From the sequence record PQ785851.1: a stretch of DNA of 40,865 bases; one strand, 5' to 3'. The notes under the pieces were generated by a model. That model ran no database searches. It saw nothing but the letters and a program-made list of their open reading frames with translations, and was not told the origin of the DNA. Position numbers and translations under genes: made by a program. The number at the start of each line of letters is the position of its first letter. Position 1 is the stretch's first letter. Of the stretch, positions 23,391 through 38,842 are shown piece after piece. The DNA is from a phage.

Positions 23391-24974
23391 TTATTTAATT
23401 CCTGCTAATCGCATCATTCTCGCTTTAGGGTCTTCTGCGATGTTCAGTACCAGGTTGACAGCCATCGTCAAACAGTCTATCTGGTCATCGTGCGAGTGAG
23501 AATCATCTGCCGTAAATGCTGCAATCTCTGTTAGCAATCCGTTAAGCCAATTTGCTGACTCAGGCAGGATAACGTTGCCAGCCTTAATCTGAGGAAGTGC
23601 ACTCATTACGCGAGTCAGCTTGTCGTTATCTGGCACGTATGGCTCGATAGGCGTTCGCATAACCCTTCCTGCTGATTGAATCAGACCTATACCAGATGCT
23701 TTCTTCTCGATGATGATTTTACGAAGGATACCATCTGTCTGATTGGATGCCCTTGCCATCCTCTCGAAGTCTAATAGCTCTGCCTCTAGCTCTGGCGCCT
23801 CCCATTTACCACGTCGCTGGTCTAACAGGTAAATCTTGCCATCCTTATAGCCCCAGAGTTGCAGTACACTAAAGTCACTGTAGCTTTTAGTGGTCATCGC
23901 GGTATCAAGCGTCATGAACCTGTAATCGTACTTAGCTGGCGGTCGCAGGGTGTCACTAATGCGCTGGAGCCAGTCTACGTTAATCAGGTTGCCACCTAGA
24001 GCTACAGGCTCCTGAGCATATTGACTAAGGAATGTGTAAGGATCAGCATCACGCATGGCTATCAAGTCTTCTATTGATTCCTTTGCTGGGAAGTAGCTGT
24101 AATACTTAACCCCATCGCGCTCTACAAATGGCGAAGAAAGAACGTCATCTATAAACTGCTGCCTAATCCATTCAGGAAGCGTGTCGGCGTATTCTTCCGT
24201 GACTATTGCTGGAATTTTAACTACGTCGAATTTTATCCCCATCTGCCCTGACTCCATGAAGTGACTAGTGTCAAGAACATGAAGCCTTTGCTGAACGGCT
24301 AATATTGGAGTCTCTTTTCCCTTAACTGAACTCGCCCTTCGTGAGCGAATTGTGTTCTTGAGAAGCATATTAACAGCCTCCCTCCTTACATTACTAAGCG
24401 CATCATCTGGCTTCAGCGGGTCATCAAGCATTATGCATCCACTGTAATCATCGGTCATGTAACCACCACGCGAACCAGTCACCTGTCCAGCCATTGCCTT
24501 AGATATCGATTCAAACCTCACCTTTCCATCTTCATCTAGAACCTGAATCTCATCATCCCTGCAAGTCCCAAATGAGCAAGGCCAAAGTTCCTGAAACTCC
24601 TTTGACTTAATCAGGTCGCGCACACGCTTTGAGTTACGCTTAACCAATGAGTCAGAGAACGACAAACTAAGATTTCTAACCTTCTTAATCTTGATCATGC
24701 TATATACAGGGAAATGTATACTAAAGAGCTCGGTTTTTGCTGATCCAGGAGCTACGTTTATGATGGTATCCTTTCTCTTACCATCAAGAATCTCATCTAT
24801 GACACGACAAAGGTATTTAGTATGCCAATTCATTTTGAATCTCTCGCCTTGCGTTATCTGAAAGAAGCACCGCAAGAACCCTTCGAAACTATGCTCAGAG
24901 ATTGCCTTTATAGCCATCTTTTCAGCGTGAGTTAGTTCATCCCAAACAATTAAATCACTCATTCTACTCTCCAA
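23391..24974 (-). CDS. terminase large subunit
   Basis: 527 aa; Walker-B-like IMLDDPLKPDDALS; position after the small terminase gene. Confidence 0.8.
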   Translation of the reverse strand: MESRMSDLIVWDELTHAEKMAIKAISEHSFEGFLRCFFQITQGERFKMNWHTKYLCRVIDEILDGKRKDTIINVAPGSAKTELFSIHFPVYSMIKIKKVRNLSLSFSDSLVKRNSKRVRDLIKSKEFQELWPCSFGTCRDDEIQVLDEDGKVRFESISKAMAGQVTGSRGGYMTDDYSGCIMLDDPLKPDDALSNVRREAVNMLLKNTIRSRRASSVKGKETPILAVQQRLHVLDTSHFMESGQMGIKFDVVKIPAIVTEEYADTLPEWIRQQFIDDVLSSPFVERDGVKYYSYFPAKESIEDLIAMRDADPYTFLSQYAQEPVALGGNLINVDWLQRISDTLRPPAKYDYRFMTLDTAMTTKSYSDFSVLQLWGYKDGKIYLLDQRRGKWEAPELEAELLDFERMARASNQTDGILRKIIIEKKASGIGLIQSAGRVMRTPIEPYVPDNDKLTRVMSALPQIKAGNVILPESANWLNGLLTEIAAFTADDSHSHDDQIDCLTMAVNLVLNIAEDPKARMMRLAGIK

Positions 24975-24978
24975 ACTA

Positions 24979-25503
24979 TTACAGCTTACTAATCACAGAC
25001 TCCAGCGCTTCCTTCATCGTACCAACGTCGTTAGCTGAAGAGTTATTGCTTATAGTAATCTCCTGCGGCTTATCGATGCCAAGTTCTTTGGAAATCATGC
25101 CAGGGTTAACAATGCCAGACGCTGCCAGCTGATACTTCTGCTCGCGAATCACGGAATCAATGAATGCAATTACCTCGTCATAACCAGCCGACTTCCTCCA
25201 TTTCTCTATTGCGCTATGGGTAACACCGCAGTAAAGGCAGAATCCTGTTAGTGTGAAGACTCGTGGCTTGTGCACCAGATTCTCGGTTACGACACCCTGG
25301 AAGCTGGCTGTCTCAATTGCCTTGATTGCCTGGCTCTCAGCCCATGAGAAGTATTTCACGGCCAGGTCGAATAGCTGCTCTGGGGTCATTATTCGGTTTT
25401 TGGACAGAGTTGTAATGTCAGAATACTTTTTGTTGTACATGGCTTTGAAGTTGCCAGAGCGAATCTTTTCTTGCGCCTGGCTGGTGAAGTTTTCGTCTTT
25501 CAT
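24979..25503 (-). CDS. terminase small subunit
   Basis: 174 aa immediately upstream of the large terminase gene. Confidence 0.55.
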   Translation of the reverse strand: MKDENFTSQAQEKIRSGNFKAMYNKKYSDITTLSKNRIMTPEQLFDLAVKYFSWAESQAIKAIETASFQGVVTENLVHKPRVFTLTGFCLYCGVTHSAIEKWRKSAGYDEVIAFIDSVIREQKYQLAASGIVNPGMISKELGIDKPQEITISNNSSANDVGTMKEALESVISKL

Positions 25504-25548
25504 TTGTGACCTCCTTTGTTGATGTAGGATTATACCATATTACAGACG

Positions 25549-25572
25549 AAAAAAAGCCCTCAAGCGAGGGCT
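25549..25572 (-). terminator. rho-independent terminator
   Basis: Hairpin GCCCTC-gctt-GAGGGC followed by TTTTTTT on the minus strand. Confidence 0.55.
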
Positions 25573-25616
25573 AAAACAACGAGAGAGATGAAACTTAAAC
25601 GAGGGTATAACACTTT

Positions 25617-25799
25617 TTACTTTCGCTCACGAACGTAAGTTACTAGGAATTTGTGGTAATCCGGGTCGGCACCAGACATTACCTTTACTTTCGCTACCGC
25701 TTCCTCTGAGGACTCAGCGGCAACCGACGCGATAAATTCTTGCTGACAATTCTTACAGCTTCGACCCATTAAGCGGATTGAAAGCTTAACATCCCACAT
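25617..25799 (-). CDS. hypothetical protein
   Basis: 60-aa ORF just downstream of the tRNA. Confidence 0.3.
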   Translation of the reverse strand: MWDVKLSIRLMGRSCKNCQQEFIASVAAESSEEAVAKVKVMSGADPDYHKFLVTYVRERK

Positions 25800-25815
25800 A
25801 ATGAATCTCCTTTAT

Positions 25816-25891
25816 TGGTGTTCCGCGCTGGACTCGAACCAGCAACTAAGACTTAGGAGGTCTTTGCGTTATCCTGTTACGCCAGCAGAAC
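25816..25891 (-). tRNA. tRNA-Arg (anticodon CCU)
   Basis: Hand-folded cloverleaf, 76 nt: acceptor GTTCTGC/GCGGAAC, T-arm GCTGG-TTCGAGT-CCAGC, anticodon arm AAGAC-CTCCTAA-GTCTT, encoded CCA end. Confidence 0.8.
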
Positions 25892-26171
25892 AAATATTTA
25901 AGTAGCGATTGCGCTATTTAAAGATTGCTGGTTACGGCTCCAGCGTCGCCTGCTACGACCGATTTAACTGCCTATTTGCGCTAGGTCTTACAAGCCACTT
26001 GAGGGTTTAATGTGCCGCATACGCTACCTAATGAGCTACGGACTTTGTGTTGCGCTCCGTGCGCCGTTGCCACTTGGTGGCCTCGTTTGTCTACGTGGTT
26101 AATATTAGATGCTTCCGCTCAGAGATTCAAGATCTTTTTAACAATCCTCATTTAAACGATTAAAAATAATC

Positions 26172-26306
26172 TCAAGCAACCAGCCATTCGATAAACCAGA
26201 TTGTTAACTCGCTCATAACATAACCACAAAACACAACAGCGCCGATGCTGTATGCAACCACCAGACAAAAAGCAAATCTAAAAAATGCTTTATCTAACTT
26301 ACTCAT
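26172..26306 (-). CDS. small hydrophobic protein (44 aa)
   Basis: MSKLDKAFFRFAFCLVVAYSIGAVVFCGYVMSELTIWFIEWLVA; below the track cutoff. Confidence 0.3.
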   Translation of the reverse strand: MSKLDKAFFRFAFCLVVAYSIGAVVFCGYVMSELTIWFIEWLVA

Positions 26307-26535
26307 AAAGGCTATTCCCATTCTCATCGTGGCCAACGCGACCTTTTCTATACCCAGCTATCCACACAAATTTATCCCTCGCAATTAGCGTAGACACAGG
26401 ACCCCAAACCTGAGTAATCAGTGCTGCGACAACTTTATCGTCTTTCTTCTTTGCGCCCAACTTTCCGTACTCGTCGTTCAGCTTGTCAGCCTGGCGCTTA
26501 ACTGCGTTGAAGTATGCATCTTCTAATCCGAACAT
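26299..26535 (-). CDS. hypothetical protein
   Basis: 78-aa track ORF in the early region. Confidence 0.35.
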   Translation of the reverse strand: MFGLEDAYFNAVKRQADKLNDEYGKLGAKKKDDKVVAALITQVWGPVSTLIARDKFVWIAGYRKGRVGHDENGNSLYE

Positions 26536-26642
26536 TTTCTGCCCTCTCGTTGTTTGATTGGTTGATTATATGGCATCAATGCCTGTCACGTTTAGCTATT
26601 CGTGCTGTCTACACCTGGCCATCTATCAAAAGTTGCTAATAC

Positions 26643-26750
26643 TTAGTCTGTATAGCCATCGCACTCAAACGTGTCACCGTATTTCTCATTGAAGTAGATT
26701 AAATCCTCAACAAATTCATCACATTTCGGGAATAAACATGTGTTAAGCAT
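26643..26750 (-). CDS. small Cys-rich protein (35 aa)
   Basis: MLNTCLFPKCDEFVEDLIYFNEKYGDTFECDGYTD; start overlaps the stop of the upstream small ORF. Confidence 0.3.
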   Translation of the reverse strand: MLNTCLFPKCDEFVEDLIYFNEKYGDTFECDGYTD

Positions 26751-36851: not shown

Positions 36852-38842
36852 AACAATTCTCCAAAATTCTTAAAAGCGATTATATCTTTACCTTTGCCGT
36901 TTTTTCTATGTGTAACCTGCACTGGTGCGCGGAACTTATCTACGTTCGCCATAATCATTCTCGCATTGCGAAGTCTGCCAATTCTTGTGGCTTCAGCGCG
37001 ATTCTCTATATGAGCAAGGCAGAAGTTCTTCCATAGCACGCTGCAAACTCGATGGTCAGACTCGGGGTTGAAGAATTCCCATGCATTAAACCGATCTCCG
37101 TTATGAGCCATGATATTGTACTTAACAACAATTCCGGTTTGATTCTTACTTAAGCCAACTTGAAAATCATAAACACGAAGGTAATCACCACGACGATACA
37201 TCTTACCTGTAAGGTTAGCATTGGGGTCTTTAAGCATCTCTCCGCACTCTCGACAGACCTTCGCTGCTATATCATTGCGAGTCCCGCACCCTTTTTTGAT
37301 AATAGCCTTTGTCTGCAGGTCTGTAATATCTTCACAAACTGTAAAAGTAAAGAAGTGCTCACATCTCTTTCCGTCAATCTTATTTCCGCATCTACGAGCA
37401 AAAGGCGAATTCTCGTATGAGCAAATTGGGCACACTCGAACCTCTGAATCACCATTGCGTGATGACTTAAACTTCTCGGCCTGAATCTCTTCAATTATTG
37501 GATCAAAGTAAAGTTCAGCCATATCATCAAGTGCGCCAGCAAAGTCCAGGACTAAGTGGTCATCCTTTTTCATACCAATTTCAATATGTTTCTTCTTGAG
37601 AATTCGCATTCCACGACCAAGAAGCTGAATCATTAATGTCAGGCTTCCAATCTTGCGGAGTATGACACTTGTGTCCCACGGAGGCACCGAAACGCCTGTG
37701 GTTAAGCATCCAATCTGAAAAATAATCTTGTACTTTCCGGTCTGGCATTCATCTAGAATTTCCCTTCTCTTCTTCTCACCAGTGGAATCAGTGATTATCG
37801 CGTAAGGATAACCATCTGGTAGAGCAGCAGCCGCTTCATCGCAGTGCATTTTACCAGCGCAAGTTACCAGTGCGGCGTTACGTGTTTCAAGTATTTTGAT
37901 AACGAACCCCATTATATTTTGTGTCATCGTCTGGTTTTCGTGAATCTTTGCAGCCATTGCATCCATTTCTTTTTTGCTGAAATCCTTAACGCCATCACTT
38001 CCATCAGGTGCAAACTCGCTAAGGTCATAACCCAAATCACCAACCTCACCGTAAACAGTTGGAACAACGAATCCCAAATCAACCAGGTAACTGGTCGGAA
38101 CTTGCATTACCGTCTTGCGCCAGAAGCCACGAATATTTGGGTTACTAACTACAATGTGGTCGTTGTTACGATACGGGCTACCAGTCAAGCCGAATATACG
38201 GAGCTCGCGACCATACTTCTCTTTGCAGCGGCGCTTCATTTCAGTGATGATTAGTGTGTACTGCGCACGACCAGTTCCAAGCAATCCGGTATTCACTCCA
38301 TCCTTGAAAACCATTTCGCCTTTCTTGGTGCTCATTTGCTCAAATGTCTCTTCGTTCTCTTCAGCTTCTACGATATCCATGTGGTCCACCATGTGTGCCT
38401 CATCTATTGCGATAACTGCCGGAACATAGTCACCAAGCCCCTTGAACAAGCCGTTTGCCGCCGTTCCTTCACTTGCCACTATAGTTGGGTAGTAAACAGA
38501 TTTAACGTTAAGGCCAGCGCAATATACGCTATTACGGATACCGAAGTTACGGAGTTCTTCAGCATTCTGGCTGATGATTTCTGACTGGCGAGAAAGCACC
38601 ATGTAAGGAAGGCCAAGCTGCTCCATGCGTTTACCAATCATGGCAAGAATGATTGTCTTACCTGCCGATACCGACAGGTCTGCGATGAACGGAGCTTCGT
38701 ACTTAGCAATATTCTTGCCGATTTGGTCGAATGTCACGCACTGGAATGGATACGGCGTAATATCTCCAAACTGATAGTCTCTCTGAATCTGCTTAATCTT
38801 TTCTTGGTCAAAGTTTGCCACTAAGCGTTCTACTGGAAGCAT
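36848..38842 (-). CDS. SF2 (DEAD/DEAH-like) helicase with C-terminal Cys-rich region
   Basis: 664 aa; Walker A ...SAGKT..., Walker B VIAIDEAHMV; C-terminal clusters CPICS...C...C and C..C. Confidence 0.75.
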   Translation of the reverse strand: MLPVERLVANFDQEKIKQIQRDYQFGDITPYPFQCVTFDQIGKNIAKYEAPFIADLSVSAGKTIILAMIGKRMEQLGLPYMVLSRQSEIISQNAEELRNFGIRNSVYCAGLNVKSVYYPTIVASEGTAANGLFKGLGDYVPAVIAIDEAHMVDHMDIVEAEENEETFEQMSTKKGEMVFKDGVNTGLLGTGRAQYTLIITEMKRRCKEKYGRELRIFGLTGSPYRNNDHIVVSNPNIRGFWRKTVMQVPTSYLVDLGFVVPTVYGEVGDLGYDLSEFAPDGSDGVKDFSKKEMDAMAAKIHENQTMTQNIMGFVIKILETRNAALVTCAGKMHCDEAAAALPDGYPYAIITDSTGEKKRREILDECQTGKYKIIFQIGCLTTGVSVPPWDTSVILRKIGSLTLMIQLLGRGMRILKKKHIEIGMKKDDHLVLDFAGALDDMAELYFDPIIEEIQAEKFKSSRNGDSEVRVCPICSYENSPFARRCGNKIDGKRCEHFFTFTVCEDITDLQTKAIIKKGCGTRNDIAAKVCRECGEMLKDPNANLTGKMYRRGDYLRVYDFQVGLSKNQTGIVVKYNIMAHNGDRFNAWEFFNPESDHRVCSVLWKNFCLAHIENRAEATRIGRLRNARMIMANVDKFRAPVQVTHRKNGKGKDIIAFKNFGELL

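Follow-up and report, generated by a model that had tools for sequence, protein, structure and literature searches.

We examined a 40,865-nt stretch of phage DNA (PQ785851.1; hereafter the window, meaning this whole stretch), concentrating on a tRNA-Arg(CCU) gene beside the packaging genes and on the leader RNA that precedes it. The window comes from a virulent, Rtp-like coliphage (Drexlerviridae, Braunvirinae) with 92–95% identity to Escherichia phages CY1_Cui-2023 and TR3, and 75–88% identity to other Rtp-like phages. The locus reads as a discrete minus-strand transcription unit, predicted to comprise a promoter, the leader, the tRNA, a 60-aa open reading frame (ORF60), and a terminator, with the packaging operon directly after it. 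The new part of this finding is the leader, a structured phage leader or non-coding RNA. In the order of transcription, the features of the locus are as follows.

26172–26306, minus strand: ORF for a hydrophobic, membrane-type protein of 44 aa (ORF list and translation), the upstream bound of the non-coding gap 25892–26171.
26102–26130, minus strand: predicted sigma70-type promoter, with −35 TTGAAT (26130–26125), a 17-nt spacer, −10 TAATAT (26107–26102), and an A-rich stretch upstream.
25892–26096, minus strand: structured leader RNA of ~205 nt (covariance-model match at 25916–26102).
25816–25891, minus strand: tRNA-Arg(CCU), 76 nt, with encoded CCA, reading AGG (ARAGORN and Rfam).
25617–25799, minus strand: ORF60, 60 aa, phrog_2919 ("DUF3667" in some records), with ribosome-binding site (RBS) AAGGAG at 25812–25807 (ORF list).
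25548–25572, minus strand: intrinsic terminator AGCCCUC-GCUU-GAGGGCU followed by U7 (terminator scan), closing the unit.
25529–25537, minus strand: extended −10 promoter-like TGgTATAAT, read from the sequence; it immediately follows the terminator and precedes the terS start codon by 25 nt.
24979–25503, minus strand: terS, terminase small subunit (Pfam PF16677 GP3_package, 4e-12; phrog_606, 8e-58), the start of the packaging/structural block.

ARAGORN, run on the entire window, called exactly one tRNA, a tRNA-Arg with anticodon CCT at 25816–25891 on the minus strand. Rfam model RF00005 matched 25819–25891 on the same strand over the full model (1–71); the score was 59.3 bits (gathering score 29; E = 1.7e-10). 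A first-pass annotation of this DNA had folded a 76-nt tRNA-Arg(CCU) with an encoded CCA end by hand, as the single phage tRNA and next to the packaging genes, and both callers bear this out, ARAGORN with the same anticodon; the gene lies 312 nt upstream of terS. The anticodon loop, CUCCUAA, has 7 nt, with U33, CCU at 34–36, and a purine at 37. The identity elements for E. coli arginyl-tRNA synthetase are A20 in the D loop, C35, U/G36, and A/G73. Reading the phage gene for these positions, we found C35, U36, A73, and an A after G18/G19 (D loop ...GGAUAA), and it looks to be a genuine, chargeable tRNA-Arg. Its 5′ end would be cut from the precursor by host RNase P and its 3′ end by host 3′ processing nucleases, and the encoded CCA should make CCA addition unnecessary. 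The host tRNA-Arg(CCU), E. coli argW, has the same anticodon, CUCCUAA loop, discriminator base, and CCA end, but the two are identical at only 50 of 76 positions and all stems differ. Since, in addition, blastn with the region 25800–26150 gave no match in 5,426 E. coli genomes, the phage tRNA is not a recent capture of argW.

The tRNA is not new in itself, because it is annotated in GenBank relatives (TR1/TR2/TR3, ACG-M12, MM01, EC3a, 12210I, JulesPiccard, and others), and it is a member of the tRNA-Arg set of Rtp-like phages. ARAGORN found a tRNA-Arg in the same slot and on the same strand in 10 of the 10 relatives first fetched; it was also present in further scanned GenBank relatives (5 loci) and in ten metagenomic copies, and other relatives carry an annotated tRNA-Arg. 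In TR1/TR2/TR3, ACG-M12, MM01, EC3a, 12210I, and MSK, as in the window, the slot lies between small ORFs and ORF60/terS, but the anticodon in the Rtp-like relatives is mostly UCU (reading AGA), with CCU found only in the window, TR3, CY1, and ES. The TR3 and CY1 tRNAs are identical in sequence to that of the window, and the Arg tRNAs of Braunvirinae fall into four clearly different sequence types (Arg-UCU in three lineages, plus Arg-CCU). Several reference genomes simply miss the annotation: ARAGORN and Rfam find a tRNA-Arg in Rtp, DTL, IME542, IME253, and CY1, whose records hold no tRNA annotation (Rtp, locus L004 of our set, 1971–2047; DTL, L009, 1806–1883; also in L007, L008, and L010). The paper on phage MSK notes "one tRNA-Arg" and states that Rtp and DTL are without it (PMC8421802), a statement that is wrong, as ARAGORN finds the gene in both. 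In the Rtp record, the protein gene rtp16 (1758–1943) is annotated 27 nt downstream of the unannotated tRNA, and in BEK6 a "hypothetical protein" is annotated over the tRNA on the opposite strand.

We then examined arginine codon usage, counting codons with one crude, uniform gene caller throughout (longest non-overlapping ATG ORFs) and taking a 50-kb E. coli K-12 sample as the host reference. The frequencies per 1,000 codons were as follows.

Phage, whole window: AGG 9.6, AGA 8.6.
E. coli K-12, 50-kb sample: AGG 1.3, AGA 3.0.
Phage structural/packaging block (5022–25503): AGG 13.5, AGA 8.5.
Remaining phage genes: AGG 5.3, AGA 8.8.

The excess of AGG in the phage over the E. coli sample was strong (Fisher p = 3e-20), and within the phage AGG was enriched in the structural/packaging block relative to the rest (odds ratio 2.6, p = 3.7e-6), with no such enrichment of AGA. 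AGG and AGA together made up 39% of arginine codons in the phage and 7% in the E. coli sample; AGG by itself accounted for ~30% of arginine codons in the phage structural/packaging genes. The first-pass annotation had proposed codon-usage compensation for late genes and named the AGG/AGA comparison of phage and host as the check, and this correlation supports it. The anticodon also follows the AGG:AGA ratio between phages, which stood at 117:105 in the window and 174:121 in TR3, both CCU phages, and was reversed in the UCU phage ACG-M12 (AGA:AGG 176:115; p = 0.003 and 2.5e-6). This makes a clean case of an anticodon matching the AGG:AGA preference among closely related phages. Judging from these codon correlations, the phage tRNA-Arg(CCU) most likely adds to a scarce host supply of tRNA-Arg(CCU) during late-gene translation.

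A mainly anti-defense role, in which the tRNA would replace a host tRNA-Arg destroyed by a tRNA-targeting nuclease, like the T5 tRNAs against PARIS/retron effectors, seems improbable to us, though it has some footing. The tRNA cassette in the slot is often exchanged among related phages, as expected of an arms-race gene. Phage tRNAs are documented as rescuing translation after host tRNA cleavage (references cited in PMC12916289), and retron Eco2 cleaves host tRNA-Arg among others in T5 infection. Against this, the CUCCUAA loop is identical in argW and the phage tRNA and shows no sign of nuclease-evading changes, which argues against evasion of an anticodon nuclease through the loop; we linked no nuclease specific for tRNA-Arg(CCU/UCU) to these phages; and codon usage is sufficient as an explanation, with the anticodon following the AGG:AGA ratio. 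The two roles are not mutually exclusive. Either way, the tRNA alone adds little, being a textbook rare-codon phage tRNA.

The gap upstream of the tRNA is a structured non-coding RNA, with compensatory substitutions beyond controls and no conserved reading frame. The stretch from the tRNA to the upstream ORF was the best-conserved part of the 1.3-kb region, and distant Braunvirinae aligned solely over positions 111–748 of the 25400–26700 query. On the window sequence, the hairpins of the leader are placed as follows.

26069–26081, minus strand: H1, GCCAC-CAA-GUGGC.
26052–26064, minus strand: H2, GCGC-ACGGA-GCGC.
26014–26043, minus strand: H3/H4.
25971–25985, minus strand: hairpin CCUA-GCGCAAA-UAGG.
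25945–25959, minus strand: H5.
25927–25944, minus strand: H6, GCUGG-AGCCGUAA-CCAGC.
25903–25916, minus strand: lineage-specific hairpin directly 5′ of the tRNA.

RNAalifold, applied to 20 distinct relatives (alignment A3), returned 34 pairs, 11 of them with compensatory double changes. Across A3, 99.1% of cells paired in the named structure, compared with 90.2% after shuffling (0/500); this structure had 11 double-change pairs, against 0–1 when the partners were slid by 1–3 columns, and the covariation score was 0.261 compared with 0.100. The changes are visible stem by stem: H1 occurs as GCCAC/GUGGC, CCAUC/GAUGG, CUAGC/GCUAG, and ACCAC/GUGGU, H5 as GUCG/CGAC or GCUG/CAGC, and H6, in the Braunvirinae alignment, as GCUGG/CCAGC or CCCGG/CCGGG. 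An alignment-independent check, anchored on the invariant CCGUAA of the H6 loop, the hallmark of this RNA, found that its flanks pair as at least seven stems (CCCGG, GCUGG, UCCGG, GCCGG, GCGGG, GUGGG, and GCCGU). In a wider alignment of 37 Drexlerviridae sequences (A5), which was fitted to the covariance model and so leans towards structure, 97.5% of cells paired compared with 76.2% after shuffling, and 27 of 33 pairs had double changes compared with 4–9 in slid controls. The column pairs with the highest mutual information were exactly the modeled helices. Judging by its U-G pairs (15/20 at columns 72/92, for instance), the structure belongs to the gene-sense strand. Folded as a single sequence, the window leader had a z-score of −2.3. 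A search by mutual information for extra tertiary or pseudoknot pairs gave nothing convincing; the idea of an ACGG/CCGU loop-loop contact involves two invariant sides, so it carries no covariation signal.

Insertions and deletions take the form of whole hairpins. The shortest Braunvirinae leaders have 164–167 nt and that of JulesPiccard has 368 nt; the window leader has ~205 nt, its 211-nt alignment extract including a few bases ahead of the predicted start. The first-pass annotation had suspected further RNA elements in this gap, as the compensatory changes and covariance-model matches now confirm, but had also reported no ORF over 20 codons in 25892–26171, which is false: there is a 30-codon GTG ORF at 25981–26073 on the minus strand, and there are four ORFs of 30–47 codons on the plus strand. 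We rejected a coding gap, as no ORF frame is kept; with leader lengths of 164–368 nt and H1 variants that move the GTG start by one base, a conserved ORF is ruled out. The same annotation had recommended a covariance-model search of the gap. Rfam 15, searched with gathering and with permissive cutoffs, contained no leader match for window 25500–26500, with only chance-level hits at E ≤ 10, and no Rfam family matched the leader in ten Braunvirinae loci and nine distant loci. Our own family models did match the structured leader. Two further candidates were rejected, namely degenerate tRNA remnants (the hairpins have no T-loop or anticodon-loop signatures, and ARAGORN and Rfam were negative) and a CsrA-type GGA loop in H2, which is not kept outside Braunvirinae.

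Next, we looked at the distribution of the leader. A covariance model built from Braunvirinae only (R1) also matched, at full length and in syntenic position, in phages that have no tRNA (Nouzillyvirus, Tlsvirus, and Klebsiella phages; E values from 1e-15 to 1e-5). Such tRNA-less members (Nouzillyvirus PH1062 and TH27, Tlsvirus YSP2, and Klebsiella phage RCIP0096) have a shorter leader between a near-consensus promoter and the RBS of the ORF60 block. A second-round model (R2) was searched against 46 sources, comprising the window, 42 loci with ORF60 homologues, complete genomes L094 and L095, and a 50-kb E. coli control; it matched in 42 of the 46, at most once in each, with nothing in the E. 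coli control and no match at E ≤ 0.1 in the ORF60 loci L114, L121, and L134. The common layout is 5′ CGUAAACAuaAGAG - H1 - AACG - H2 - linker - AAAUCGG - H5 - H6 (loop A(N)NCCGUAA) - AAC.. - RBS. Pattern scans with the H2 18-mer added little diversity: in IMG/VR, 4 of 11 matches were coincidences inside tape-measure genes, and in metagenomes, 14 of 61 were real by nhmmer. We also looked through the genome for another leader or H6-type hairpin, on the pattern of nutL/nutR, and found only chance hairpins. Inside the helicase gene, at 38538–38565 on the minus strand, a 9-bp hairpin with the loop AACUCCGUAA is followed by a second CCGUAA and resembles the H6 loop; ACG-M12 and TR3 keep part of it, probably as coding sequence, and the likeness is likely a coincidence. 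A description of a Drexlerviridae leader or ncRNA was found neither in Rfam nor in the searchable literature, although the ~8,500 unnamed phage RNA candidates of one study (PMC10690425) may include part of it.

The elements that flank the leader are conserved as well. From its promoter, transcription in the window is predicted to start at ~26096. The promoter element is kept in all relatives, as TTGCAT-17-TAATAT in Braunvirinae and elsewhere as TTGACR-N9-CTGATTGG-TAnnnT, where TGG makes an extended −10; the scan tool does call the promoter in loci L097 and L099, which have TG before the −10. The first transcribed segment after this family-wide promoter, CGUARACAUAAGAG, is also conserved. At the other end, the terminator is annotated as such in MM01 and EC3a, and tRNA-less relatives have equivalent strong terminators between the ORF60 block and terS. 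The TGgTATAAT element after the terminator, a putative promoter, is conserved in EC3a, 12210I, and RobRod40.

ORF60 accompanies the leader. It had a PHROG match at 1e-27 and, by tblastn, homologues in 345 phage records across Drexlerviridae, with no Pfam match. Its AlphaFold2 model has a beta-beta-alpha-beta fold, with a pLDDT (predicted local distance difference test) of 90 in one of five models only; Foldseek against the PDB gave no neighbor below E = 0.1, and the model has no recognizable RNA-binding fold. The 44-aa ORF that bounds the gap had no family match in Pfam/PHROG searches, and its EC3a homologue is annotated "putative membrane protein."

In comparison with the leader, the tRNA is unevenly distributed. 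Among the non-Braunvirinae loci scanned, 17 of 19 had no tRNA. A Drexlerviridae-like contig (L108, IMGVR_UViG_2706796100_000001) carries a tRNA-Ser(GCU) at 794–881, between H6 of the leader and ORF60; its position in the slot held by tRNA-Arg in Braunvirinae points to independent tRNA acquisition. In L109, the slot holds a tRNA-Arg(UCU) and a second, tRNA-like gene. The leader is present in tRNA-less relatives, and the slot is filled variously or mostly empty, so the tRNA looks like a lineage-specific passenger, which would use the strong promoter of the leader. By these sequence comparisons, the leader appears to be older and more conserved than the tRNA, and we infer that leader and ORF60 are ancestral, with the slot after H6 serving as a socket in which tRNAs have been gained and exchanged.

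The second gene of L109 is one of several ~100-nt tRNA-like genes that stand directly after a tRNA-Arg(UCU) (EC3a, L023, 954–1060; PsgS01F, L022, 960–1058; L109, ~780–880) and that are absent from the window. Their acceptor stem has 7 bp and is accompanied by ACCA, their T arm is canonical (GCAGG-UUCGAUU-CCUGC), and they also contain a long extra hairpin and one that resembles an anticodon arm with UAU (for AUA, Ile). ARAGORN missed them, the Rfam tRNA model gave 26 bits (partial), and the PsgS01F record annotates a 99-nt tRNA-Ile. PsgS01F itself is listed as "Pseudomonas phage PsgS01F" with host Pseudomonas syringae (PP134917.1), and it is ~80% identical to E. coli Rtp-like phages over the leader, tRNA, and ORF60; a "Campylobacter phage" group also has ORF60. 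The host assignments of both look doubtful.

What the leader does is best discussed from its position. Taken as a whole, we think it probable that the locus is a promoter-leader-tRNA-ORF60-terminator unit with a codon-supplementing tRNA and an older leader that we propose to exert control in cis. On the narrower question of leader function, we lean tentatively, and with less than even confidence, towards cis-acting transcription control at the entry to the packaging/late genes. The leader would act by attenuation or antitermination at the junction of the small early-type ORFs and the packaging/late genes: a factor, or RNA polymerase itself, would recognize the CGUAA-bearing elements, and this recognition would set whether polymerase stops at the terminator between leader and terS. 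Three observations speak for such control. In the window and in three further genera, a strong terminator separates the leader unit from terS; the promoter, with its extended −10, and the first transcribed bases are unusually conserved; and the Tempevirinae-type equivalent of H6 is an attenuator-like, 9-bp GC-rich hairpin with a U-tract that encloses YCGUAAGA directly before the RBS.

Several points weigh against this account. The window promoter has only 8 of 12 consensus matches, just below the threshold of the scan tool, and promoter, transcription start, and processing are deduced from sequence alone. Here the terminator is followed by a promoter-like element for terS itself, so read-through is not obviously required. 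The tRNA between leader and terminator, through the RNase P cut, would sever a put-like RNA tether; we recognized no boxA/boxB-like or put-like motif in the leader (boxA judged by eye), and there is a single leader copy per genome. The sequences compared are closely related, and many covariation "cells" reflect few evolutionary events, with A5 fitted to the model; the Tempevirinae matches were the weakest (E from 1e-4 to 0.07), which makes it less certain that their terminator hairpin is homologous to H6. Finally, the codon evidence is a correlation that is compatible with an anti-defense role of the tRNA.

A broader version of this proposal, which we regard as possible but more doubtful, is that the leader represents a new phage regulatory RNA class of all Drexlerviridae, whose CGUAA hairpins would engage RNA polymerase or a factor for the late switch, or would act in trans on the host, with a tRNA "expression socket" behind. 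If that were true, rare-codon tRNAs (Arg-UCU, Arg-CCU, Ser-GCU, and Ile-like) would have been repeatedly inserted or exchanged behind a leader of this class.

Action in trans by itself, as a stable ncRNA (for example, a sponge or decoy that binds a CGUAA-hairpin-recognizing protein of the host or the phage), we consider unlikely. In Braunvirinae, the tRNA would then provide for release by RNase P, and the structure does stay under selection even where the tRNA separates the leader from any RBS. A strong promoter and a terminator of its own delimit the unit; each leader contains two to three copies of CGUAA, found at the 5′ end, in the H6 loop, and, in some variants, in the loop or linker of H2; and a late-promoter leader that serves as a functional small RNA (sRNA) with downstream tRNAs gives a precedent (PMC7547250). 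In most Drexlerviridae, however, the leader is the 5′ untranslated region of ORF60, with H6 8–15 nt from the RBS, which suggests a role in cis, and no target or partner of the leader has been identified.

Control of ORF60 translation has a slightly smaller chance still. Here the leader would be a riboswitch or a protein-binding translational operator of ORF60, possibly autoregulated, which in Braunvirinae persists upstream of the inserted tRNA. Its build is aptamer-like, with invariant AACG, AAAUCGG, and CCGUAA, stems that covary, and insertions that vary but occur at fixed points, and its link to ORF60 is strict in the 42 of 46 sources matched by R2. The Tempevirinae type, and it alone, also has a terminator-like expression platform (3′ hairpin and U tract). 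Against this reading, no Rfam riboswitch class matches; there is no conserved alternative pairing that sequesters the RBS; and the ORF60 model does not resemble an RNA-binding fold. In the window, moreover, the structure is still maintained although the 76-nt tRNA and its processing come between leader and RBS. A DNA-level site with incidental hairpins is very improbable: the region is situated immediately upstream of terS, a common location for the pac sites of phages that package by the headful, and some replication origins are primed by promoter-driven structured transcripts, but stem-preserving double substitutions (at least seven H6 stems) and strand-specific G-U pairs are not expected for a duplex-DNA protein site, and indels add or remove whole hairpins.

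Two further observations concern the wider genome. In the window, terS adjoins the terL ORF (23391–24974) with no HNH gene between them; several close relatives have an HNH endonuclease gene at this point (TR3, L001, 505–1011; CY1, L010, 505–1011; Rtp, L004, 76–552; L005, 408–920). The octamer CTGAYYGG is ~5-fold over-represented in the window, with 20 copies on both strands against 3.9 ± 2.0 in dinucleotide shuffles (0 of 100 reached 20), for example at 1613, 5379, 11381, 13299, 23739, 28601, and 36753; there are 26 copies in the full ACG-M12 genome and 22 in that of TR3. In most Drexlerviridae, the octamer also directly precedes the −10 of the leader promoter. A primase signal, a recombination signal, and a codon effect are all possibilities for this excess.

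To our knowledge, the regulation of transcription in T1-like phages is essentially uncharacterized, although these phages are classical, common, and present in therapy collections. A family-wide leader with a conserved strong promoter, placed once per genome before the terminase genes, offers a testable handle on that regulation and is a candidate for a new Rfam family. What this locus adds is the Drexlerviridae-wide leader RNA together with its tRNA socket, the tRNA itself being ordinary.

Among known systems, three invite comparison. The stable RNAs of phage T4 (species 1 and 2) are co-transcribed with a tRNA cluster and presumably released by tRNA-processing enzymes. Like the leader, they are non-coding structured RNAs in one transcript with tRNA, but the Drexlerviridae leader also occurs without any tRNA. 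The nut sites of lambda and put sites of HK022 resemble it as structured 5′ leader elements that follow a strong promoter and precede intrinsic terminators, and the order of promoter, leader, and terminator before terS in the window and three other genera matches such a placement. H6, a small hairpin with a sequence-specific loop, is reminiscent of lambda boxB. Unlike the nut sites, the leader shows no boxA consensus recognizable by eye and no boxB-type GNRA-like pentaloop, H6 having 4–5 bp and an 8-nt loop; there is one copy per genome rather than two; and no N-like protein has been identified.

By analogy, the closest counterpart of the whole arrangement appears to be the late region of Shiga toxin (Stx) phages. 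The tRNAs of Stx phages include rare-codon Arg and Ile species, for which a literature check (ileZ/argN/argO) brought no usable confirmation. Their switch is the protein Q, acting on DNA and on RNA polymerase, and we know of no Q homologue in phages of the window type. Their leader has no sequence or model similarity to that of Drexlerviridae, in which the RNA structure itself is conserved. In Stx phages, transcription from the constitutive PR′ yields a leader that ends at a terminator and from which the sRNA StxS is processed; tRNA genes and then late genes follow, and, unlike in the window, the tRNAs lie after tR′ with their own promoter (PMC7547250). Both arrangements nevertheless share a constitutive-looking promoter, a leader of ~200–260 nt, tRNA genes downstream of it, and the late genes after these.

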